Assembly (NCBI GenBank): GCA_963834265.1
Contig: CAWIAU010000001.1
Coordinates: forward strand, 7,572 to 71,571
Source of the DNA: an uncultured bacterium
Lineage (GTDB): Bacteria > Patescibacteriota > Saccharimonadia > Saccharimonadales > 2-12-FULL-41-12
DNA: 64,000 nt
Reading direction: 5' to 3'
Positions 4,172 to 57,856 of this stretch are shown piece by piece (positions within the stretch are counted from its first letter, which is position 1; each line of letters begins with the position of its first letter). A program made the translations under genes and the position numbers. Under the pieces are notes generated by a model, which ran no database searches, was not told where the DNA came from, and saw only the letters and a list, made by a program, of their open reading frames with translations.

Positions 4172-4699
4172 ATGAAAACAGTATTTTTGGACAGAGACGG
4201 TACAATTATTGTTGATCCGCCCGACCTGCGCGTGGATAAGATAGAGAAGATCGAACTTTTCCCTGATAGTATTGAGGCACTTGCCTATCTTGCACGGCAT
4301 GATTTTAATGCCGTAATCATAACTAACCAAGCAGGTGTAGCCGAAAACCGGATTAACGAAGAAGAATTCTGGACCATCCACAATGAGGCGTTGAAAATGT
4401 TAGCACCAAGCGGGATAAAAATACTGAAGACATACATGTCCCCGCATGGTCAGGGTGAAGTAAATGAATGGCGCAAGCCATGACCGGGCATGCTACTTCA
4501 AGCTGCAAAAGACTTTGGCCTGAACTTATCTGACATATACATGGTTGGCGATAGCCACTCTGATATCATGGCCGGCATTAACGCCGGTACCAAAACTGTG
4601 CTGGTCAAAACAGCTAACATGAATGTCGAAGCGTCTGAAGCCGACTACACCGCACCGAATCTGATGGACGCCGTAAAGTATATTGTCGCCCACAGCTAA
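4172..4699 (+). pseudogene. gmhB: HAD-IIIA phosphatase (GmhB-type) interrupted by one in-frame TGA at 4481-4483
   Basis: ORFs 4172-4483 and 4490-4699 are in the same frame. Joined, they give FLDRDGT ... IITNQ ... RKP*PGMLL ... MVGDSHSDI, which is all four HAD motifs. Confidence 0.7.
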
Positions 4700-4862
4700 A
4701 TAATACACTCAGGAAATTCCTTGGTTTTTAGTGACAGTAAATTACTTCAACGATTGCTTACCAAAGGAGTCAATTAGGCAAAATGAGCATAAAGGCGTAT
4801 AATAAGGAGTAATAAACGTTAGCTTGGAGATCTGAGCAACTATAGAGTAAAGGTTTGATAGC

Positions 4863-13301: not shown

Positions 13302-15020
13302 TTACTTTGGGGAAAAAGTATGGAATTTGGTTTTGAACCTTGAGGCCATGCTAAAAACTTCGTGTCGCCATTCGTAAAATGCATAGCCAAGCGCGGCAAT
13401 AACAGCTAGTGTCACAAGGAGCAACCTCGGATTATTCCCTACTGAGCCTGACGGAAGATCCCTGACCTGTGCAATCCCCGCCACACTACCGCCACCCGCA
13501 CTTTTCCGACAACGATTTGTTTCAGGGTTACGTTCCTGACCCTCATCGCAAGGAGTCAGAGAAGAAGCTGTTTGGATAATTGCACGGCAACGATTTGTTT
13601 CAGGGTTACGTTCCTGATCGGCCTTACACGGCACAAGTTCTGAATCAGACGCTCCGATTGAGCGACATCTGTTTGTTTCAGGGTTACGTTCCTGACCGAT
13701 TTTGCAGGCTGTCAGATTCAGCGCAGCTAGCTGTATTAACCGGCAACGATTGGTATCATGATTACGTTCCTGATCCTGACGGCAGGGTGCGAAGCTTACG
13801 ATATTGTTGCTGATGTCCTCTTCGTCGGGAGTATTAATCAGCATAGGAAGATTAGCATTCGCGGGAGTAGGCTGATTGGTATACTGCCATACCCCGTCAA
13901 TGAGCGCCCATGCATTGTTTTCTATTGGCTGCTCATAGCTCGCTGCCAAACTGACAGCTTCACCATTCGGTGCTACGAGCCGTACGCTGGCCGAACTATT
14001 AGGCAGCACCAAACCTGTCTGAGTATCAGAAAATGCCTGATATGCTCCTGACCCTATTATCTGATCGGGCAATGGGTATGATTTGGAGTAGTCAGGACCT
14101 GATTGTAGTATGTAGCCTTTCAAACTTATTGGCCGGTTGTTAGGATTGTATATTTCGATAAATTCGTTCCCCGCATCATAGCTGGTGGCATTTGGCAACA
14201 ATTCAGTGATATACAATGTGGCATTTTCGAGTGGGATAACATTGCAGTTTTCACCATCAGAACTCTCGTAACCGGCAGGGATGCTGGTCTGCAGATCATC
14301 GATATTAAAACAGAGATCAGCCTGACAATTGCCCGCTGCATCTTTCAGATACCCGGCCGGCAATTGTGTTTGTAGTCCATCAATATTTATACAGATATCT
14401 GTCTGTACTATTACTTCGTAGACACTACTGGAGACCAGTACTGGCACGGCAACCTGCCCGAAGTCATCCAGGTTATCATTAGTGTCTTTAAGCGTCGTCT
14501 CGCCAATGCTGACGCGCTGTAAAATGCCGGGGCTTACCGGATTGGCCGCAGCTGTACCTTCTGCAGTACCGCCTCCCCATCCTAATCTGTCAATTTCCAC
14601 ACCGCCGGCATCGAGCAAGCGAATATACCGGTCTTTGCCGGCAATCGAACCTGACGCAAAAGTAATATCGAAGACAGACGCCGGGTAATCAACTTTGAAT
14701 GCACTGCTCGCTGCAACCAGGTAGCCATGAGCCGGTAGCCAGAGTTTAGTATGAGCATCAGGAGCGATCAAACAGCCCAGATTTGCAGAATCTTCTGTCG
14801 TGGCGCCATATTTTAGACACCATCCGGTCGTATCAACCGCTGCCGGGCTGTTGTTGTAGACAGAGATGTATTCTTTATTTGTAAATCCTGTTGCCCCGAC
14901 CTGTAACTGGTAAATCACAGGATTGCCAGCTGCTTGAGCCACTTGAGAAACTAACATCAATAACCCGAGTACTGCGAATACTCCGCTCACCCCCAGCAAG
15001 CTTTTAATCATGCCGTTCAC
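13302..15020 (-). CDS. surface-anchored protein with two lamin-tail (LTD) domains and four Cys-bracketed repeats
   Basis: Signal peptide; LTD-like segments (YISVYNNSPAAVDTTGWCLKY; EFIEIYNPNNRPISLKGYIL); 4x C-x3-QERN(P/H)(E/D)TNRCR; C-terminal TM helix. Confidence 0.8.
   Translation of the reverse strand: MNGMIKSLLGVSGVFAVLGLLMLVSQVAQAAGNPVIYQLQVGATGFTNKEYISVYNNSPAAVDTTGWCLKYGATTEDSANLGCLIAPDAHTKLWLPAHGYLVAASSAFKVDYPASVFDITFASGSIAGKDRYIRLLDAGGVEIDRLGWGGGTAEGTAAANPVSPGILQRVSIGETTLKDTNDNLDDFGQVAVPVLVSSSVYEVIVQTDICINIDGLQTQLPAGYLKDAAGNCQADLCFNIDDLQTSIPAGYESSDGENCNVIPLENATLYITELLPNATSYDAGNEFIEIYNPNNRPISLKGYILQSGPDYSKSYPLPDQIIGSGAYQAFSDTQTGLVLPNSSASVRLVAPNGEAVSLAASYEQPIENNAWALIDGVWQYTNQPTPANANLPMLINTPDEEDISNNIVSFAPCRQDQERNHDTNRCRLIQLAALNLTACKIGQERNPETNRCRSIGASDSELVPCKADQERNPETNRCRAIIQTASSLTPCDEGQERNPETNRCRKSAGGGSVAGIAQVRDLPSGSVGNNPRLLLVTLAVIAALGYAFYEWRHEVFSMASRFKTKFHTFSPK
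13505..13790 (-). repeat. four tandem 75-78-bp coding repeats (core ACGATTTGTTTCAGGGTTACGTTCCTGA)
   Basis: Cores lie at 13512-13539, 13590-13617, about 13665-13695 and 13746-13773. They encode the QERNPETNRC modules of the LTD protein. Confidence 0.9.
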
Positions 15021-18502: not shown

Positions 18503-18578
18503 GGGGGTGTAGCTCAGTGGTTAGAGCAGTCGGCTCATAACCGATTGGTCCCTGGTTCAAGTCCAGGCACCCCCACCA
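18503..18578 (+). tRNA. tRNA-Met (anticodon CAT), elongator type; tRNA-Ile2 (lysidine) not excluded
   Basis: 7-bp acceptor stem GGGGGTG/CACCCCC, D arm GCTC-AGTGGTTA-GAGC, anticodon loop CTCATAA, T arm CCTGG-TTCAAGT-CCAGG, encoded ACCA tail. The G1-C72 pair argues against an initiator. Confidence 0.9.
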
Positions 18579-33517: not shown

Positions 33518-35005
33518 ATGCAAAAGAGGGTAATAATTATCGGCGCGGGTACTGGCGGACTGGCGACCGCTTGTCTACTGGCAAAAGATGGATACAAAGT
33601 TACTGTCTACGATAAGAACGAGCAGCCCGGAGGGCGTAACAGCCGGTTCACTGAAAAAGGCTTTACATTCAACTATGGGCCTAGCTGGTATCTGATGCCC
33701 GATGTGTTCGAGCACTACTTCGAATTGCTGGGCGAGGATATAACTAAACACCTTTCTCTGCTAAGATTGTCACCCGGCTATCGGGTGTTTTTCAAAGATA
33801 CGCTACTTGGTGCCACAGATATATATGGTGATCCGGAACGGGACGGTACGACTTTTGAGAGTTTTGAGCCCGGGGCAAAGATTCGATTGCTGAATTATCT
33901 TGATCAGGCCGGTCAGAATTATAATCTGGCAACAGAGCATTTTTTGTATAAGAATTATGAATCGTGGCGCGACTATCAGAAACCGGCTGTACTCCGTGAA
34001 ATGAGAATGTTCAAGTTGTTAGGCACCCTGCATAAACACATTGCAAAGCAGTTCAAAAGTGTCCAGTTGCAGAAGATTCTGGAATATCCGGCTGTATTTT
34101 TAGGCGGTAGTCCCTATAACATACCGGCGCTTTACAGTGTCCTCAGTCATGTTGACCTCAATCAGGGTGTGTTCTACCCAAAAGGCGGTCTCTATGCTGT
34201 TACCGAAGCACTGGCGGCCATTGCAAAGCAGCATGGAGTGAAGATTATATGCAACCAGGAGGTTACCAGGCTTACAGTTGAGAGCAGGCAGGTCAGCGGT
34301 ATTCGCCTGAGCTCAGGGAAAACAGCATCAGCTGATATAGTAATCAGCGGAGCCGGGATACAAAATACCGAGCAGAATCTGTTGGATCCAAAAAATCGTA
34401 TGTACTCGAATCGCTACTGGAAGAAACGGGTTCATGCACCAAGTGCAATGTTGATTCATCTGGGTGTTTCGGGGAAATTGCCTGAACTGGCGCATCACAA
34501 CCTGTTATTTAGCAAGAAATGGAAATCTCACTTTGACACCCTATTTGGCAAAAAAGCATGGCCGGGAGATCCCTCAATATATATCTGCAACCCCACAAAG
34601 ACGGATCCCGATACAGCACCCAAAAATCATGAAAATCTGACCATACTTATACCCCTTGCGTCCGGACTTACTTATAGCGATGATACTCTGGAAACATACG
34701 CCAATCATATTCTGAGTAAGCTGGAGGAAACTTTACATTTGAATAACCTTCGTGCGCGAATTGTCTATAAGAAGTTATTTTGTGTGCGTGACTTCGCCGA
34801 ACGCTACAATGCACCTCAGGGCACAGCTCTGGGTTTGGCACACACATTACGTCAAAGTGCCGCATTCCGACCTTCTAACATTCATAAAAAAGTAAAAAAT
34901 CTATACTTTGTCGGTGCCGACACTACTCCCGGAATTGGCATACCGATGTGCCTGATAAGCGCCGAGCTGGTCCAAAAACGCATAATCGCTTCGCTTCAAA
35001 ATTAG
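33518..35005 (+). CDS. phytoene-desaturase-family FAD oxidoreductase (CrtI-like)
   Basis: N-terminal Rossmann fold VIIIGAGTGGLATACLLAKDGYKVTVYDKNEQPGGR and a C-terminal LYFVGADTTPGIGIPM. Confidence 0.85.
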   Translation: MQKRVIIIGAGTGGLATACLLAKDGYKVTVYDKNEQPGGRNSRFTEKGFTFNYGPSWYLMPDVFEHYFELLGEDITKHLSLLRLSPGYRVFFKDTLLGATDIYGDPERDGTTFESFEPGAKIRLLNYLDQAGQNYNLATEHFLYKNYESWRDYQKPAVLREMRMFKLLGTLHKHIAKQFKSVQLQKILEYPAVFLGGSPYNIPALYSVLSHVDLNQGVFYPKGGLYAVTEALAAIAKQHGVKIICNQEVTRLTVESRQVSGIRLSSGKTASADIVISGAGIQNTEQNLLDPKNRMYSNRYWKKRVHAPSAMLIHLGVSGKLPELAHHNLLFSKKWKSHFDTLFGKKAWPGDPSIYICNPTKTDPDTAPKNHENLTILIPLASGLTYSDDTLETYANHILSKLEETLHLNNLRARIVYKKLFCVRDFAERYNAPQGTALGLAHTLRQSAAFRPSNIHKKVKNLYFVGADTTPGIGIPMCLISAELVQKRIIASLQN

Positions 35006-35027
35006 AAGTTCTTTAAAAAACCAGAGA

Positions 35028-35273
35028 ATGTTCTTCCGACCAAGAACCAAGTCGATACTTTTGTCAGCAGCAACAAAAGTATCCAAAAACGCCGCATCGG
35101 TTGCCGAAACAAGACTGTCCCTCAATACCAGATCAGTTCGTGCCGGCAAAGACACCCGCTGGTCGGCCCCGCTTGATTATTTTTAATGAGAAGCAGGACT
35201 GGTTTGCCGTCAATAACCCGAACTGACCTGATTGAGTGTCAATCCGTTTCGGCAAATGCTGGACTGGATCCAT
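35028..35273. repeat. copy A of a ~250-nt structured repeat (second copy at 56647-56900)
   Basis: Long identical blocks are shared with copy B (ATGTTCTTCCGAC, AAGAACCAAGTCGATACTTTTGTC, CCAAAAACGCCGCA, GTGCCGGCAAAGAC, TTTCGGCAAATGCTG). Hairpins at 35030-35047 and 35054-83 (11-bp perfect stem). Confidence 0.85.
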
Positions 35274-35330
35274 GGCTAGCGGATTTACTATCAAAAACAT
35301 ACTATACAAGGATCAACCTTGTTTCAACAG

Positions 35331-36284
35331 TTACTCTATAAAAAGATTAATGATGAAAAGGCTGGCGTAGAACAGAACCACTATAGAAACGAGCCAGATG
35401 CCGATTCTGCGACGTTTCAGGAACATGCCTTTTGCGGAAACTGTCTGGCGGCCTTCAGCAAAAGGCAGACGTTCATCGCGATACGTTAAAATATTATCGA
35501 GCAGTTGTTTTTTGATTATGCCCAGCTTCTCACTCATTTCTTTAAGCTGCAACGAGGGCTCGTACATCGACCCATAAATTAGCAGTTGCTTACCGACTAT
35601 TTCTATATCATAATCATCCGCTTCAATAAGTGCCTCCATAACATCAGGTGTGATAAAGCTCATGCTGTCAATCGTGTAGTCCCTAGCAAAATATGTTGCA
35701 AAATGCTGATCAAAATCACCTTCAAGACTATGTAGCTGTTTCTTATCAAATACAGTACTAAATTGTCGGCCACGCTGTTTAAGAGAGTCAAATACGACAT
35801 TTGGTAACGCCCGCGGCAAATCGGTGCTCATAACTCCATAGTAAATAACAGCTTTTCTGTAGGTGCCATACCGGGTCTCCAGATAGGTCGCGTACTTTAA
35901 GTCTACATAGGTCCAATCGGGAGCTGTGATAGCGTTGTCGTATTGGATTTGAGTATCAGTAATCTTCAGTAGCGAAGCATTTTTTATGGCTGGGGGTGGT
36001 AAACCTTCAATGATTTTCCATTCATGTTTTTTGGCTAATTGCTTGAAAATTTCAGCTCGTTTTGTAAGCTGTTGATATTCCTTAAATAACCTGTAAAAGC
36101 CGTATAACAAAACCATACATCCGAGAAGAATTGGAATAAAAAGAATTTTCGTAACTTGTCCATCCTGCCCTATCGCTCCCGTTTTACTGGCGGCAATCAC
36201 AAAAGCCAAACCAAAAACGAGAAAGCCGGCAAAAATGTAAGTTGGCGGTGAGTACCGTATTTTAAGTAAGTCTGGTTTTCGCAT
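35331..36284 (-). CDS. membrane protein of unknown function (two N-terminal TM helices, one C-terminal TM helix)
   Basis: 317 aa. An extended -10 TGCTATAAT lies on the minus strand at 36323-36315. No catalytic motif recognised. Confidence 0.6.
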   Translation of the reverse strand: MRKPDLLKIRYSPPTYIFAGFLVFGLAFVIAASKTGAIGQDGQVTKILFIPILLGCMVLLYGFYRLFKEYQQLTKRAEIFKQLAKKHEWKIIEGLPPPAIKNASLLKITDTQIQYDNAITAPDWTYVDLKYATYLETRYGTYRKAVIYYGVMSTDLPRALPNVVFDSLKQRGRQFSTVFDKKQLHSLEGDFDQHFATYFARDYTIDSMSFITPDVMEALIEADDYDIEIVGKQLLIYGSMYEPSLQLKEMSEKLGIIKKQLLDNILTYRDERLPFAEGRQTVSAKGMFLKRRRIGIWLVSIVVLFYASLFIINLFIE

Positions 36285-36411
36285 TTTTATTCTCTAAATA
36301 TTCACTATAATCGGAATTATAGCAGAGTTTTTGGGATTTAGAGGAATGAAGCAACGAAACAGTTTTGTTAGTCTCAGGCGCAGATATAATACTATTCCTG
36401 GTGTTAACGTT

Positions 36412-37026
36412 TTATTTAAAATCTATTGATTGGATAAGATCATTGTAGATCTTTGAGTACTCTGAATTTTTATACACTTCCTCCGGAATCTCAATCCGAT
36501 AGGAGCTTTTGTCAATGAAGAATAGGGTGTTATGCGATACATGAGTACCGAGAGTAGCGTCGTACTCATATACTTTTTTGCCGTCAACGGTCTTATCTAT
36601 TCCATTTGTAACATATTTTAGTATAGGGTTATCATTACTTTTGAATTTATCAATCGTATCTAAATTTAGACTGGGAGTCATATATATTCCAATAACAGCG
36701 CCTCTGATAACTGCCAGAGAAAGTCTGGCTTCATCGATTTCGGTATCCGGTGCAATAAGCTTTATGTCCAGGAAATTGCTCTCCTCAAGATCAACTTTGC
36801 TTGACCATGATTCAGGATACTTGAATGTGAATGGTAACTTTTCTAATGCTGCGCTGTCTTTATCTTGGTTAACGACGATATTCGTGCTGTTAGATTGAGG
36901 TTGTTCTCTTTTGTCTTTGTTCGCGTTAATAACGTAAAAACCCACTCCTACAAGTACCGTTAGAGCTATAACCCCTAAGAAACTCTCAATTACACCAAAG
37001 CCTTTTGAATTAAGTTTTTCGTTCAT
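36412..37026 (-). CDS. type IV pilin-like protein (prepilin-type N-terminus)
   Basis: MNEKLNSKG|FGVIESFLGVIALTVLVGVGFYV: Gly at -1, Phe at +1, Glu at +5, then a hydrophobic helix. Paralogous N-terminus to 56910-57503. Confidence 0.7.
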   Translation of the reverse strand: MNEKLNSKGFGVIESFLGVIALTVLVGVGFYVINANKDKREQPQSNSTNIVVNQDKDSAALEKLPFTFKYPESWSSKVDLEESNFLDIKLIAPDTEIDEARLSLAVIRGAVIGIYMTPSLNLDTIDKFKSNDNPILKYVTNGIDKTVDGKKVYEYDATLGTHVSHNTLFFIDKSSYRIEIPEEVYKNSEYSKIYNDLIQSIDFK

Positions 37027-37115
37027 ACTTTATTCCCGTTATTTCTGGTTATGATTATTCTGAAAAGTATAAAGCCTAATTTTATAAATAGAAAGCGGTT
37101 CTGACTTTGGGCGAT

Positions 37116-37517
37116 TTAGAAAGCTAGTTTTTTGGCCATTTCGGCCAGGGCTTCGTGATCTGGTTCGGTCAACTGATCAGGGATATATCGGGATTCTTCG
37201 GGCGAATCAAACGGATACACGTGGACATGTGCATGCGGTACATCTTCGCCTACAACTAACTCGCCAACATAAGTCCTACCGATTACTTCCCGAATACGCA
37301 AAGCAATTTTTTTGACTGTAGACATGACAGCATAGTAGTCTTCGTCTTCTAAATCCCACACAAACTCTACCTGTTTTTTAGGTATAACAAGGGTGTGACC
37401 GGGTTGCTTAGGATGAATATCAAGAAAAGCCAGTGTTTTATCGTCTTCATAGATTTTGTGACACGGAATTTCACCTTTTATAATTCTGGTAAAAACTGAG
37501 TCTTCCATCTTACTCAC
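37116..37517 (-). CDS. HIT-family nucleotide hydrolase/transferase
   Basis: Histidine triad HAHVHVYP with an N-terminal IFTRIIKGEIP. Confidence 0.9.
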   Translation of the reverse strand: MSKMEDSVFTRIIKGEIPCHKIYEDDKTLAFLDIHPKQPGHTLVIPKKQVEFVWDLEDEDYYAVMSTVKKIALRIREVIGRTYVGELVVGEDVPHAHVHVYPFDSPEESRYIPDQLTEPDHEALAEMAKKLAF

Positions 37518-37539
37518 AAGTATACACGTATACCAAAAA

Positions 37540-37565
37540 GGATCCGCAGAAAAATCTGCGGATCC
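37540..37565 (-). terminator. intrinsic terminator of the 37601-37801 gene
   Basis: 11-bp stem GGATCCGCAGA/TCTGCGGATCC with an AAAA loop, followed on the minus strand by TTTTTGG. Confidence 0.8.
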
Positions 37566-37600
37566 CGATTTTGAGACGTCTTTGTTTGATGCTTATGCTA

Positions 37601-37801
37601 TCACTTGTCGCGCTTGACAGTCAAGAAACCGTTGCGTGGGTTTTCGTTGACGCTCATGCCTGCAGGCAAGTCAGTAGCGGTTTCTTTACGCTCGTCCTTG
37701 CTGAAGTAAAAAATTCTTTGCTTTTTGCCGCCTCGCAGGACTACTTCCTTTGAGTTCAGATGATATGTAACACCCTTACTGTTAGTATGATTGTATCCCA
37801 T
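37601..37801 (-). CDS. small basic hypothetical protein (66 aa)
   Basis: AGGGAG RBS 10 nt upstream of the ATG, with its own promoter and terminator. No motif recognised. Confidence 0.6.
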   Translation of the reverse strand: MGYNHTNSKGVTYHLNSKEVVLRGGKKQRIFYFSKDERKETATDLPAGMSVNENPRNGFLTVKRDK

Positions 37802-37844
37802 TGGTTATTCACTCCCTCTACTTACATTTACTAATGGTACCCCT

Positions 37845-37874
37845 ACCATACTCCTCTGACTTTTCACTTGTCAA
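37845..37874 (-). promoter_or_regulatory. promoter of the 66-aa gene
   Basis: On the minus strand, TTGACA (37874-37869), an 18-nt spacer, then TATGGT (37850-37845). Confidence 0.45.
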
Positions 37875-38192
37875 CCCTGTAGTGAGCTTTTCATACCATC
37901 CCCAGAGGTGGATGCATAGTTTAACAGAAGTTAAACTGATGAAAAGTCTACTACGGGGTCAACACCTTTCTTTAACCGAGCATTTGCATATCAGGAGTTA
38001 AATCCTTTTCAAATGAGTCAATTTTAAATTGCTTTTAAGATTATTTTTTGCTGTTACTGCGCTGGGTGAAAGTATATTTCTAATTGTTGTAAGCAGCCTG
38101 CCGTCGTAAAAATTTCTAACTTTGACTTGCAAGCTATTATGCTTATGCAGTACACTAAGATTCAGTAACATAACAATAACAGAGGTGGTAAA

Positions 38193-44400: not shown

Positions 44401-44475
44401 TTGTTACTTGGCCGGAAACTATTTATGCTTATTTTAGCACATTATCTTTACTAGTCATTTACGCAATCAGACTTA

Positions 44476-44644
44476 AGAGCTAATTAACATCTATCTGTCG
44501 GCTAAAAACTTAAGGTCCGGCACTTTCAATCTGTTTTTCGTTTTCGGTTCGTAGCAAAGGCTACGACCAAAAGCCGAAAAACAGATTGAAAATCATGTCG
44601 GCTGCTAAAGTTTCGCTATCAACAGATAGATGTTAATTAGCTCT
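44476..44644. repeat. 169-bp rod-like inverted-repeat element (E1)
   Basis: 23-bp perfect outer stem (44476-98 / 44622-44), 17-bp perfect inner stem (44524-40 / 44575-91) and an apical GTAGC-AAAG-GCTAC (44551-64). The large internal loop carries TGTCGGCT on both strands of the loop. Confidence 0.85.
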
Positions 44645-52724: not shown

Positions 52725-52862
52725 AATTTCACCTCTGTATTACTTGTTTTGTTGACAGACCTCTGGCATGGACCTCTAGCTGTATGAACGCTCAGTTTGA
52801 AACGAACATACATCGGTCCTCAGATTTGAATCAGGATAATTCTTTAGTCTCATTTATATTTG

Positions 52863-52871
52863 ATTATAGCA
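52863..52871 (-). promoter_or_regulatory. extended -10 (TGCTATAAT) candidate promoter for aspS
   Basis: Minus-strand TGCTATAAT lies about 140 nt upstream of the aspS ATG, and the -35 is weak. Confidence 0.35.
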
Positions 52872-52899
52872 TCTTTAAGGTACTTGTTGTGACTTCTTA

Positions 52900-52928
52900 T
52901 TGACATTTTGTATATTATTTGCTATGAT
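52900..52928 (+). promoter_or_regulatory. near-consensus promoter driving element E3 and the S8 protease gene
   Basis: TTGACA (52900-05), a 17-nt spacer ending in TGc, then TATGAT (52923-28). The predicted start lies a few nt before the E3 outer stem. Confidence 0.6.
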
Positions 52929-52940
52929 AAGTATTAAGGT

Positions 52941-53103
52941 TAACTTACCTTACGCAAATCGCTGGCTTCCACGATGAATCAGCTCGAGCGAAAATTGTTT
53001 TCTCTGAACGAGACGTAGCCATAGCTACATTGAAAGAAGAAAAACAATTTGCAGCCGAAATTATTCGTACTGGGGGCGCAGGAAGTTTGCGTAAGGTAAG
53101 TTA
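52941..53103 (+). ncRNA. candidate structured RNA / 5' leader element E3
   Basis: 18-bp perfect outer stem (52941-58 / 53086-103), an inner stem AAATTGTTTT.../...AAAACAATTT and an apical GTAGC-CATA-GCTAC (53015-28). It ends 11 nt before the protease ATG. Confidence 0.5.
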
Positions 53104-53114
53104 CTAAAATAAAA

Positions 53115-55970: not shown

Positions 55971-56621
55971 ATGGATAAACAATTTTTGTTGGTTTTAGGA
56001 GTCATTATTGCTGCTTTGGTAGGCGTATTCGCGTTTACCAAAGAAAAAGCCGCTACACCGGGCACAGATACAGCTCAGAACAGCTCCCAGGTCGGCAGTC
56101 GAACAGTAGGCGAAGGTACCGGAGGAGTAACGCTTGTAGAGTATGGCGACTTCGAATGTCCGGCGTGTAAGTCTTATTATCCTATCATTCAGGAGATTAA
56201 AAAGTCATACGGCGATCAGATAAAATTCCAGTTCCGACACTTTCCGCTTGTCCAGATTCATCAGAACGCAATGCTGGGCAGTCGTGCCGCTGAAGCAGCA
56301 AATAATCAGGGGAAGTTCTTCGAAATGCATGATCTGTTGTACGAAAATCAGGATACCTGGTCCAAGACCACCAGTCCCAACAGCGTACTGGAAACATTTG
56401 CAAAACAGCTGAATCTTGATGTCGAAAAATTCAAAGCAGATATGTCTAGCGAAGCAACTCTGAAGACAATCAATGCCGATATCAAAACAGGACAGGCTTT
56501 AGGTGCTAACTCAACACCGACATTTGTGATCAACGGTAAAAAAATTGACAAGAATCCGCAATCTCTGGAAGATTTCAAAAAGCTGATCGACGAAGCACTG
56601 GCCGAAAAGAAACCCCAATAA
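55971..56621 (+). CDS. DsbA-family thiol:disulfide oxidoreductase, membrane anchored
   Basis: N-terminal TM helix and a thioredoxin fold with active site CPAC (FECPACKSY). Confidence 0.85.
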   Translation: MDKQFLLVLGVIIAALVGVFAFTKEKAATPGTDTAQNSSQVGSRTVGEGTGGVTLVEYGDFECPACKSYYPIIQEIKKSYGDQIKFQFRHFPLVQIHQNAMLGSRAAEAANNQGKFFEMHDLLYENQDTWSKTTSPNSVLETFAKQLNLDVEKFKADMSSEATLKTINADIKTGQALGANSTPTFVINGKKIDKNPQSLEDFKKLIDEALAEKKPQ

Positions 56622-56646
56622 ATTCTTCTTTCTTTTGATAAAAGGT

Positions 56647-56900
56647 ATGTTCTTCCGACGAAGAACCAAGTCGATACTTTTGTCTTCAGCAACAAAAGTA
56701 CCCAAAAACGCCGCAGACAATTACCGGAACACGACTGTCACCCATACCAGCTCAGTCCGTGCCGGCAAAGACTCCCTTTGGTCGGTCCTGCTTAATAATT
56801 CTCAAAAAGATGCAGGACTTATTTGCCGGCAATCACCCCCACTAACCTGATGACCGCCAATCGGTTTCGGCAAATGCTGAATAAAATCCAAAGACTAAAT
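56647..56900. repeat. copy B of the ~250-nt structured repeat (first copy at 35028-35273)
   Basis: Collinear with copy A, with the same two 5' hairpins and long-range complementary segments (TGCCGGCAAA / TTTGCCGGCA). It starts 26 nt after the dsbA-like stop and ends 10 nt before the stop of the pilin-like gene. Confidence 0.85.
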
Positions 56901-56909
56901 TAATTAGTT

Positions 56910-57503
56910 TTAGAGTTTGGTTATTGTTGGCTGCTGTTTGACTAATGCTTGTTTTAGTTCACTAAATAATGCGATATTAGGATCGTTTTCCGGAACAGTG
57001 TTTGGGTTATGGCAAGGTGCTTGGTTATTTCCTTCAAAGGCATAGTACCTATCACCGATTTTAACACCACCAAAGGATTCGAGATCTGCCTGAGTTAACG
57101 GTGTACCGAAATGGTCATCTCCTACTTTTGCTGCATTTATAACAGCTAAACCTCCGCCATTTCCAAACTCCCCTCGCGCTGTACAGCCCTCAAAGCCTTT
57201 AAGGCTATCAAAATGCCTGACTGAGATATAAACAAAGCCGCTTTCGTGCACAAAATAATACGCATCTTTGAGCTTATCGTTAAGCTCAAATTTTATCCCT
57301 AGCTCTTTAATTTCAAGGTATTTCTTCTCATCCTTCTTCGCTTCTTCAACTTTTGTTGTTGTTTGCTGTGAAGATTGAGTTGCTTTAGAATTATCTTTAT
57401 TAGCATTCACTACGTAGAATCCGACGCCGGCTATCATAGTTAGGGCTATGACAATTAGTAAGCCTTCGATCATGCCGAAACCTTTTTGATTAAGCTTTTG
57501 CAT
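56910..57503 (-). CDS. type IV pilin-like protein (prepilin-type N-terminus)
   Basis: MQKLNQKG|FGMIEGLLIVIALTMIAGVGFYV with Gly at -1, Phe at +1 and Glu at +5. The C-terminal domain has a Cys pair. Confidence 0.7.
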   Translation of the reverse strand: MQKLNQKGFGMIEGLLIVIALTMIAGVGFYVVNANKDNSKATQSSQQTTTKVEEAKKDEKKYLEIKELGIKFELNDKLKDAYYFVHESGFVYISVRHFDSLKGFEGCTARGEFGNGGGLAVINAAKVGDDHFGTPLTQADLESFGGVKIGDRYYAFEGNNQAPCHNPNTVPENDPNIALFSELKQALVKQQPTITKL

Positions 57504-57856
57504 TATCCGGTCCGCCTTTACGATTATGATTATTTGCTAGTTATTATACAGCTTTTAACCCTATTTAATAATCCTTTAGTCCATGGATTTCCTCAGGCCC
57601 GAATAGCTTCCTGATGTGCGAGTGTCACAAGCACAATTAGGGCCAAGGCAATGTCTGAACCAATTTCTCACTGAAAGTTAATTAATAATTGATGAGTTTG
57701 CCGGGCATTGTGCTCTTTGACAATGAGATCATAAAGAATCTTTTGTCGCCTGCCATTTTTTCGCTTCGTTTTTGTTGGCACAAAAAGGAAGTCGGGCTGA
57801 CCTTCAGGTCAGAATGAAATTGATTTCAAATTAAAAAATTTTGACTTTTCAGGCAA

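Follow-up and report, generated by a model that had tools for sequence, protein, structure and literature searches.

We describe a structured non-coding element of about 250 nt that occurs twice in a 64,000-nt stretch of contig CAWIAU010000001.1 (assembly GCA_963834265.1, positions 7,572 to 71,571 of the forward strand), hereafter the window. The host is a Saccharibacteria-like genome of the candidate phyla radiation and is compact, most gaps in the window being shorter than 130 nt. This placement follows from the protein neighbours and from named homologues, two of which NCBI lists under Candidatus Saccharibacteria. Each copy of the element follows a plus-strand gene (a crtI-like gene with its stop at 35005 for copy A; a DsbA-like gene with its stop at 56621 for copy B), beginning 22 nt (A) or 25 nt (B) further on, and its other end lies 57 nt (A) or 19 nt (B) from the stop of a minus-strand gene (35331 and 56910 respectively). 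The two copies are as follows.

35028..35273, minus strand: core of element copy A, delimited by alignment to copy B; homology may reach 35009-35281; strand assigned from the G-U asymmetry and the cassette strand, both described below.
56647..56890, minus strand: core of element copy B, delimited by alignment to copy A; homology may reach 56630-56899.

Aligned with MAFFT, copy A (35028-35273) and copy B (56647-56891) were collinear over their full length, with 43 substitutions (22 transitions and 21 transversions) and three single-base indels in 247 columns, and blastn returned 81.7% identity over 246 nt (E 7.8e-59). An earlier interpretation made from the letters of the window (the sequence-only reading) had claimed two collinear full-length copies, and had given the distances to the neighbouring genes; both statements are borne out, as is its general description of a non-coding repeat with a structured fold, present twice and each time in a convergent gap. 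Identity was unevenly distributed, with 94% in the 5′ 69 nt (65/69) vs 76% in the remainder (136/178), and the longest exact run common to A and B was 24 nt. Permissive blastn extended weak similarity leftward to 35009/56630, where homology is possible, and a small conserved hairpin carries possible homology rightward to approximately 35281/56899. No third copy was found within the 64-kb window using blastn with 7-nt words, nhmmer (--max) and two covariance models (R1, representing the 3′ module, and R2, representing the long hairpin).

Each copy folds into one imperfect hairpin of approximately 165 nt and two short hairpins, located as follows.

35094..35259, minus strand: long imperfect hairpin of copy A, approximately 165 nt, three helical segments with internal loops; seen in the RNAalifold consensus (columns 27-193), in the inverted-repeat arms and in the minimum free energy (MFE) fold of a 261-nt stretch.
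56713..56877, minus strand: long imperfect hairpin of copy B; seen in the fold, the RNAalifold consensus and the inverted-repeat arms.
35054..35083, minus strand: hairpin 2 of copy A, stem of 11-12 bp, with the invariant linker UGCGGCGUUUUUGG (35084-35097) ahead of it on the minus strand.
56673..56702, minus strand: hairpin 2 of copy B, in which one A-U to G-U change (columns 205/232) leaves the stem whole on the minus strand only.
35030..35047, minus strand: hairpin 1 of copy A, 6 bp, GTTCTT-CCGACC-AAGAAC, then AUUCUCUGGUUUUUU on the minus strand.
56649..56666, minus strand: hairpin 1 of copy B, 7 bp, GTTCTTC-CGAC-GAAGAAC, weakly terminator-like (GTTCTTCGTCGGAAGAAC then ATACCTTTTA).

The sequence-only reading had recognized most of these parts. 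Hairpin 1 is indeed present in both copies, the stem of B comprising 7 bp, and hairpin 2, which had been described with 11 bp in A and 9 bp in B, has these lengths on the plus strand: the stem of A is a perfect 11 bp, and that of B shows 9 contiguous bp on the plus strand but, counting one G-U pair, 11 bp on the minus strand. All the long-range pairs proposed at the time (TTGCCGAAAC/GTTTCGGCAA and TGCCGGCAAA/TTTGCCG(T/G)CA) were found, together with a GTCCTGC/GCAGGAC helix in which, read on the minus strand, two positions (columns 88/119 and 91/116) pair as U-G in A but as U-A in B. A 17-18-nt direct repeat (CAGTYCGTGCCGGCAAA vs CAATCSGTTTCGGCAAA) also occurs twice per copy, 105-106 nt apart (35133-35150 and 35239-35256 in A; 56753-56769 and 56858-56874 in B), and the long hairpin accordingly contains four occurrences of the motif CGGCAAA/TTTGCCG; either a duplication inside the element or a recurring binding motif could account for this.

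The sequence of the stems is preserved better than that of the loops. The reference structure for this comparison was either each copy's own MFE fold or that of the other copy, to avoid circularity, and a Fisher test was applied. With the own fold as reference, 23 of 172 paired columns had changed vs 23 of 75 unpaired columns (p 0.002); with that of the other copy, the figures were 14 of 148 and 32 of 99 (p 1e-5). Stems are hence 2.5-3 times better conserved than loops, and since paired columns change less than unpaired ones, selection on the structure of the element is well supported. The substitutions lie mostly outside the stems, in agreement with the earlier remark that changes are concentrated in loops.

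Several measures distinguish the two strands. The minus-strand fold was stronger by about 20 kcal/mol in both copies (copy A, -103.3 kcal/mol for the 261-nt minus-strand stretch vs -81.5 kcal/mol on the plus strand; copy B, -87.2 vs -67.4 kcal/mol), and nearly all the stem changes are G-U wobbles on that strand. The RNAalifold consensus of the minus strand (-71 kcal/mol) contained 73 pairs, none of them broken, with nine one-sided G-U changes and one compensatory change, and that of the plus strand (-38.6 kcal/mol) contained 49 pairs and did not recover the long hairpin. Folds of both strands beat all 200 shuffles. Single transitions at pairs (n = 11) kept the pairing in nine cases on the minus strand and in two on the plus strand. 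Of the two strands, the minus strand is the richer in G+U, and 17 of the 146 cells paired on it turn into A-C mismatches on the plus strand. The hint of a minus-strand RNA in the sequence-only reading thus gains support from MFE, consensus and G-U changes: the minus strand is the better RNA candidate, favoured although not proven to be the RNA strand.

The genes around the element point the same way. Both copies belong to groups of minus-strand genes, which we refer to as cassettes, with the following composition.

35006..37115, minus strand: cassette A, between the crtI-like gene and the HIT gene; element, 317-amino-acid gene and 204-amino-acid gene; absent in relatives.
36412..37026, minus strand: type IV pilin-like gene of 204 amino acids, with the motif KGFGVIE and a hydrophobic helix; first gene of cassette A.
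35331..36284, minus strand: gene of a predicted membrane protein of 317 amino acids; last gene of cassette A, directly upstream of copy A on the minus strand.
37116-37517, beyond cassette A: HIT gene, its identity taken from a protein look-up.
56622..57856, minus strand: cassette B, between the DsbA-like gene and the iron-permease gene; element, 197-amino-acid gene and a 353-nt upstream region; absent in relatives.
56910..57503, minus strand: type IV pilin-like gene of 197 amino acids, with the motif KGFGMIE; the one gene of cassette B, ending 19 nt before copy B in the minus-strand direction.
57543..57550, minus strand: extended -10-like TGTATAAT, approximately 40 nt upstream of the 197-amino-acid pilin-like gene; a match to the consensus only.

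These cassettes were compared with the corresponding loci of relatives whose flanking proteins are 70-80% identical (crtI-like, 68-70% in L066/L067 and L069; DsbA, 79% in L098). At the crtI junction, the crtI-like gene overlaps the convergent HIT gene in L066/L067 and L069, and one extra gene of 191 amino acids lies between the two in L068. At the DsbA junction, the convergent iron-permease gene lies 2 nt from DsbA in L098, and L099 and L100 have a gap of 224-258 nt with a sequence unrelated to the element. The relatives are therefore without cassettes and without the element at both junctions, and all the extra cassette genes of the present genome are encoded on the minus strand. The gap between DsbA and iron permease in L099 (6192-6415) and L100 (1078-1335) holds another conserved non-coding block, 67% identical over 196 nt between the two, which is unrelated to the element and has no Rfam match.

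The copies do lie in convergent gaps, as the sequence-only reading had stated, but they are not mere gap filling: they form the 3′ ends of lineage-specific minus-strand pilin-like cassettes, and the element therefore either came in together with the minus-strand gene or is part of it. Relative to the pilin-like unit the two copies are placed and oriented alike, and this 3′ position at two paralogous units independently indicates the same strand as the G-U analysis. The element could conversely be a plus-strand feature, serving the crtI-like and DsbA-like genes as a 3′ untranslated region (UTR) or terminator, or else ending transcription from both sides of a convergent gene pair, given that it starts 22-25 nt past the plus-strand stops and that the plus strand folds better than shuffles (z -3.5 and -4.2). 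We regard this as highly improbable. The two plus-strand neighbours are unrelated to each other whereas the minus-strand cassettes are paralogous; some junctions of the relatives have no spacer whatsoever, so that no such element is needed there; the plus-strand consensus loses the long hairpin, with the A-C mismatches counted above; and no hairpin followed by a U-tract was found on the plus strand.

The 204- and 197-amino-acid proteins share a prepilin-type N-terminus that is 62% identical over 45 residues and consists of KGFG(V/M)IE and then a hydrophobic helix, and among the open reading frames (ORFs) of the window this motif was found in these two genes only. We call them type IV pilin-like as both carry a prepilin leader ending in G, the F-x-x-x-E pattern and the hydrophobic helix. 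Their family comprises approximately 1000 representative clusters; 12 of 47 sampled members match Pfam N_methyl (PF07963), at best with E 1.8e-6, and searching the PDB with the family profile recovers the N-termini of Geopilin/PilA (E 0.0019). The two proteins of the window are themselves below Pfam thresholds. For the 317-amino-acid protein, a matching family was found in none of Pfam, NCBIfam and PHROGs.

Similarity between the cassettes is limited to the element on the one hand and, on the other, the pilin 5′ UTR with the N-terminal coding region (63% over 244 nt). The C-terminal domains of the two pilin-like proteins are completely different. For identical codons of the common pilin N-terminus, third positions match at 10 of 28 and fourfold sites at 3 of 13, i.e. 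saturation, so that the element (82% overall and 94% in the 69-nt module) is far better conserved than the synonymous sites of its own cassette. A joint duplication of gene and element would mean that selection has preserved the element; a later arrival would mean that the element spread, or was converted, between cassettes. A functionless, neutral leftover of an old segmental duplication of the pilin cassette would suit cassettes that are paralogous at both ends, but is barely credible, because the synonymous sites of the co-duplicated pilin genes are saturated and yet the element remains 82% identical, its stems 2.5-3 times better kept than its loops. A 250-nt non-coding block at this identity beside saturated synonymous sites is unlikely to be idle, given both the compactness of this tightly packed genome and the conservation of the element.

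The same arrangement, with a conserved pilin N-terminus and a 3′ element bracketing entirely different C-terminal domains, would also be expected of a DNA-level homology block or recombination site for exchanging or moving pilin cassettes, comparable to the Neisseria Sma/Cla repeat or an integron attC site. Both cassettes look inserted relative to the relatives, and an imperfect palindrome lies at the 3′ end of a gene cassette. This explanation is nonetheless improbable: with a longest identical run of 24 nt and 63% identity in the 5′ block, the flanks make a poor substrate for homologous exchange; the scanned flanking genes encode no recombinase or integrase family (Pfam, NCBIfam and PHROGs); and the G-U-type changes are mismatches at the DNA level. 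The attC core sites (GTTRRRY and RYYYAAC) are absent from both strands of 35006-35330 and 56622-56909, and with neither core motif in either gap an integron attC site was rejected.

We found no sign of a coding function. Stops interrupt all six frames and, per frame, 7-10 changed codons are synonymous vs 22-28 non-synonymous; a small protein gene was rejected on account of these stops and the lack of a synonymous excess. Gene callers place a 52-amino-acid ORF inside copy A, which had no relatives among 5.8 billion proteins, and a protein search with the translated spurious ORFs of the element, aimed at copies annotated as genes, likewise returned none. In a scan of the whole window against Rfam 15 at gathering thresholds the sole match was a tRNA (18503-18575), and permissive Rfam scans of both copies gave sub-threshold chance matches only (E at least 0.18). 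The scan thus agrees with the sequence-only reading, which had recognized no riboswitch or known small RNA, in that no family matches either copy.

Four further identities were considered and rejected. The differences between A and B affect 9 of the 68 A, 7 of the 66 C, 15 of the 54 G and 14 of the 58 T of copy A; a template and variable repeat (TR/VR) pair of a diversity-generating retroelement was rejected as the differences are not confined to adenines and both copies are intergenic. A retron msr-msd was rejected as the adjacent genes (amine-oxidase/phytoene-desaturase-like, DsbA-like, pilin-like and the 317-amino-acid membrane protein) have no reverse-transcriptase domain. Prophage attL/attR sites bounding the 21.6 kb between the direct copies were rejected as this interval is syntenic with relatives; it carries core genes, e.g. 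a class II aminoacyl-tRNA synthetase (Pfam tRNA-synt_2). A phage origin of the cassette proteins was likewise rejected.

The element was not found outside this genome. Among one genome per GTDB species, the pattern CCAAGTCGAN{20,40}AAAAACGCCGC gave 65 loci, all attributable to chance; in the JGI metagenomes the 24-mer AAGAACCAAGTCGATACTTTTGTC had no match and ATCNGTTTCGGCAAATGCTG gave 26 loci, again all by chance; three patterns searched in the IMG/VR viral contigs gave no match or chance matches only; and blastn against GenBank phages and PLSDB plasmids gave no match. The scans of large collections require exact words of 19-24 nt and so exclude close copies only, the absence being weak evidence beyond close relatives. 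No copy was detected in approximately 74 kb from relatives; covariance models and nhmmer, run on the window, on the loci of five relatives and on the gaps 3′ of the pilin homologues nearest to those of the window (L101-L104), recovered the two known copies only. The nearest database genomes are only 70-80% identical at the protein level, which makes the species essentially a singleton. A literature search for miniature inverted-repeat transposable elements (MITEs) or REP-type repeats in the candidate phyla radiation or Saccharibacteria returned no mention of either.

A selfish or formerly mobile palindromic repeat (MITE, or ERIC- or Correia-like) might look much the same, sitting in both cassettes because harmless landing sites are rare in a compact genome, with any effect at the RNA level secondary. 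A long imperfect palindrome makes up the core of the element, as in ERIC, Correia and other repeats of the MITE type; relatives have the element at neither locus; and A and B have diverged far less from each other than the pilin paralogues have, in line with a later spread. Logan short-read contigs of sample ERR12037361 (approximately 35067-37606 and 56656-57775) moreover stop inside the 5′ module of the element, and as they end there (at approximately 35067 and 56656) despite A and B having no exact 31-mer in common, further copies or strain variants may be present in the sample. We nevertheless consider such an origin rather unlikely. The sequence-only reading had named terminal inverted repeats as the mark of a MITE; these and target-site duplications were searched and neither was found. 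The inverted repeats are all internal hairpin arms and the left end (ATGTTCTTCC...) does not pair with the right end (...GCAAATGCTG); no direct duplication flanks either copy, with boundaries fuzzy by approximately 20 nt, so that a duplication of 2-3 bp is possible. There are two copies only in 64 kb and none in approximately 74 kb from relatives, both are placed and oriented alike relative to the pilin-like unit, and neither a transposase nearby nor a match in the phage and plasmid collections was detected. The conservation of stems over loops after approximately 30% divergence at unpaired sites is not expected of a dead mobile element.

Taking these observations together, we tentatively favour the view that the element is a conserved, minus-strand, structured 3′ trailer RNA of type IV pilin-like transcripts that acts in cis. 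We infer that it is transcribed, on which strand and between which ends, and that it serves as a stabilizer or insulator, the cis-acting role on the basis of its anatomy and of analogy with the hairpins of REP, BIME and ERIC repeats. Transcription would start at each cassette's own promoter and run through the pilin-like gene (and, in A, the 317-amino-acid gene). It would then continue into the element with no terminator in between; none was detected by a terminator scan of the spacers (19 and 57 nt) that separate the minus-strand stops from the element. The RNA of the element would fold into the hairpin of approximately 165 nt and then the two short hairpins, and this 3′ structure might shield the pilin message against 3′-to-5′ decay and might also halt or insulate transcription ahead of the convergent crtI-like or DsbA-like gene.

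Several observations weigh against a 3′ trailer. The element does not seem to end in an intrinsic terminator of canonical form: hairpin 1 with its U-run is a poor one, which in the minus-strand scan passes in B (7 bp, 3 G-C, tail ATACCTTTTA) and fails in A, where the local fold is unremarkable, and the U5 that follows the long hairpin sits 4-5 nt off the stem. A strong canonical intrinsic terminator does occur upstream of the HIT gene (37566-37539, minus strand; 12-bp stem with 7 G-C, then TTTTGG), which shows that the genome uses at least one classical terminator elsewhere. The z-scores do not separate the strands (-5.0 on the minus and -3.5 on the plus strand for A; -3.1 and -4.2 for B), the 9:2 asymmetry of the transitions is only marginal (two-sided p 0.065), and covariation is minimal, with one compensatory pair, as there are only two copies. 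The link to the cassettes rests on n = 2, and the nearest pilin-like homologues in other genomes (approximately 50% identity) have no homologous element in their downstream gaps; the L101 gap, the only one compared with shuffles, showed no unusual structure.

Instead of a cis-acting trailer, the copies may be paralogous small RNA genes acting in trans, either from a promoter of their own or by processing from the pilin 3′ UTR, with the invariant linkers UGCGGCGUUUUUGG and CGACUUGG as interaction sites. The 94% identity of the 69-nt module extends to its unpaired linkers, beyond what upkeep of the hairpins would require, the structure favours the minus strand, and a sigma-70-like site lies upstream of copy A on that strand (35327-35299). 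Against this, that single promoter match is at chance level for the scan, no promoter-like site precedes copy B, 19 nt from the stop codon, no candidate target was identified, and the searched collections held no homologue; a role in trans thus seems unlikely. It is distinctly unlikely, too, that the element represents a new non-coding RNA family confined to one lineage of Saccharibacteria and devoted to cassettes of type IV pilins, be it a regulator embedded in the 3′ UTR that couples or switches pilin paralogues or a cis module that makes the cassettes portable.

What makes the element of interest is its apparent association, seen in two instances, with type IV pilin-like cassettes of a candidate-phyla-radiation genome. 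In published work, the type IV pili of cultivated Saccharibacteria are described as mediating attachment to the host bacterium and as central to finding and holding hosts. A conserved RNA structure on pilin-like messages, if true, would open a first way of studying post-transcriptional control among Saccharibacteria. If the element is only a local repeat, it would still break short-read assemblies of this organism and mark lineage-specific insertions of pilin cassettes.

Some other features of the window are unusual for a compact genome or resemble repeats. Four tandem units with an exact spacing of 78 nt (13507-13794; 72-80% identical over 54 nt) lie inside a minus-strand ORF of 572 amino acids (13302-15020), so that a coding repeat of 26 residues is more probable than a CRISPR-like array. 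A further hairpin of unusual length for so compact a genome is the inverted repeat at 44524-44591 (32-nt arms, 84% complementary, 4-nt loop), which lies in the 242-nt gap (44401-44642) that follows a minus-strand gene. Other unusually long non-coding gaps, with no Rfam match at gathering thresholds, are found at 37518-38192 (675 nt), 52725-53114 (390 nt), 4484-4862 (379 nt) and 57504-57856 (353 nt).

As a structured, selectively maintained non-coding repeat the element is real, and it is new as a sequence family; in kind it is already known, since other transcription units likewise carry hairpin repeats at their 3′ ends. The ERIC/IRU, REP/BIME and YPAL sequences are intergenic palindromic repeats of enterobacteria, and the hairpins of REP, BIME and ERIC are 3′ exonuclease barriers and modulators of message stability. 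The literature on REP reportedly includes work by Newbury et al. from 1987, and that on ERIC work by De Gregorio et al. from 2005. The element resembles these repeats as an imperfect intergenic palindrome of 100-170 nt, often at the 3′ end of an operon, and is probably co-transcribed in the same manner; they form hairpins in RNA, and an equivalent action may be supposed for the element. It has no sequence relationship to them, however, and is present in two copies in a 64-kb window, as opposed to tens to hundreds of copies. It also carries an additional, highly conserved two-hairpin module of 70-80 nt and is linked specifically to pilin-like cassettes, in a candidate-phyla-radiation genome. 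The Correia elements (NEMIS) of Neisseria and other MITEs are similarly small, non-coding, hairpin-forming, repeated and intergenic, and can enter transcripts, but the element differs from them in that neither terminal inverted repeats nor target-site duplications were found, and in its two copies being oriented alike to the same kind of gene.

Small RNAs derived from 3′ UTRs, such as CpxQ and SdhX, are 60-100 nt long, with a canonical terminator and defined seeds and targets. The element shares with them the position of a conserved structured RNA at the 3′ end of a protein-coding transcript, and differs in having no clear canonical terminator and no known target. The Sma/Cla repeat, approximately 65 bp in length, lies 3′ of the Neisseria pilE/pilS genes and serves DNA recombination among many silent cassettes. 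Here, too, a conserved non-coding block lies 3′ of pilin genes with differing variable parts; in the present case, however, both genes are complete, and between conserved flanks so diverged gene conversion would be inefficient; the element, at approximately 250 nt, is strongly structured, with a pattern of G-U changes that points to RNA.

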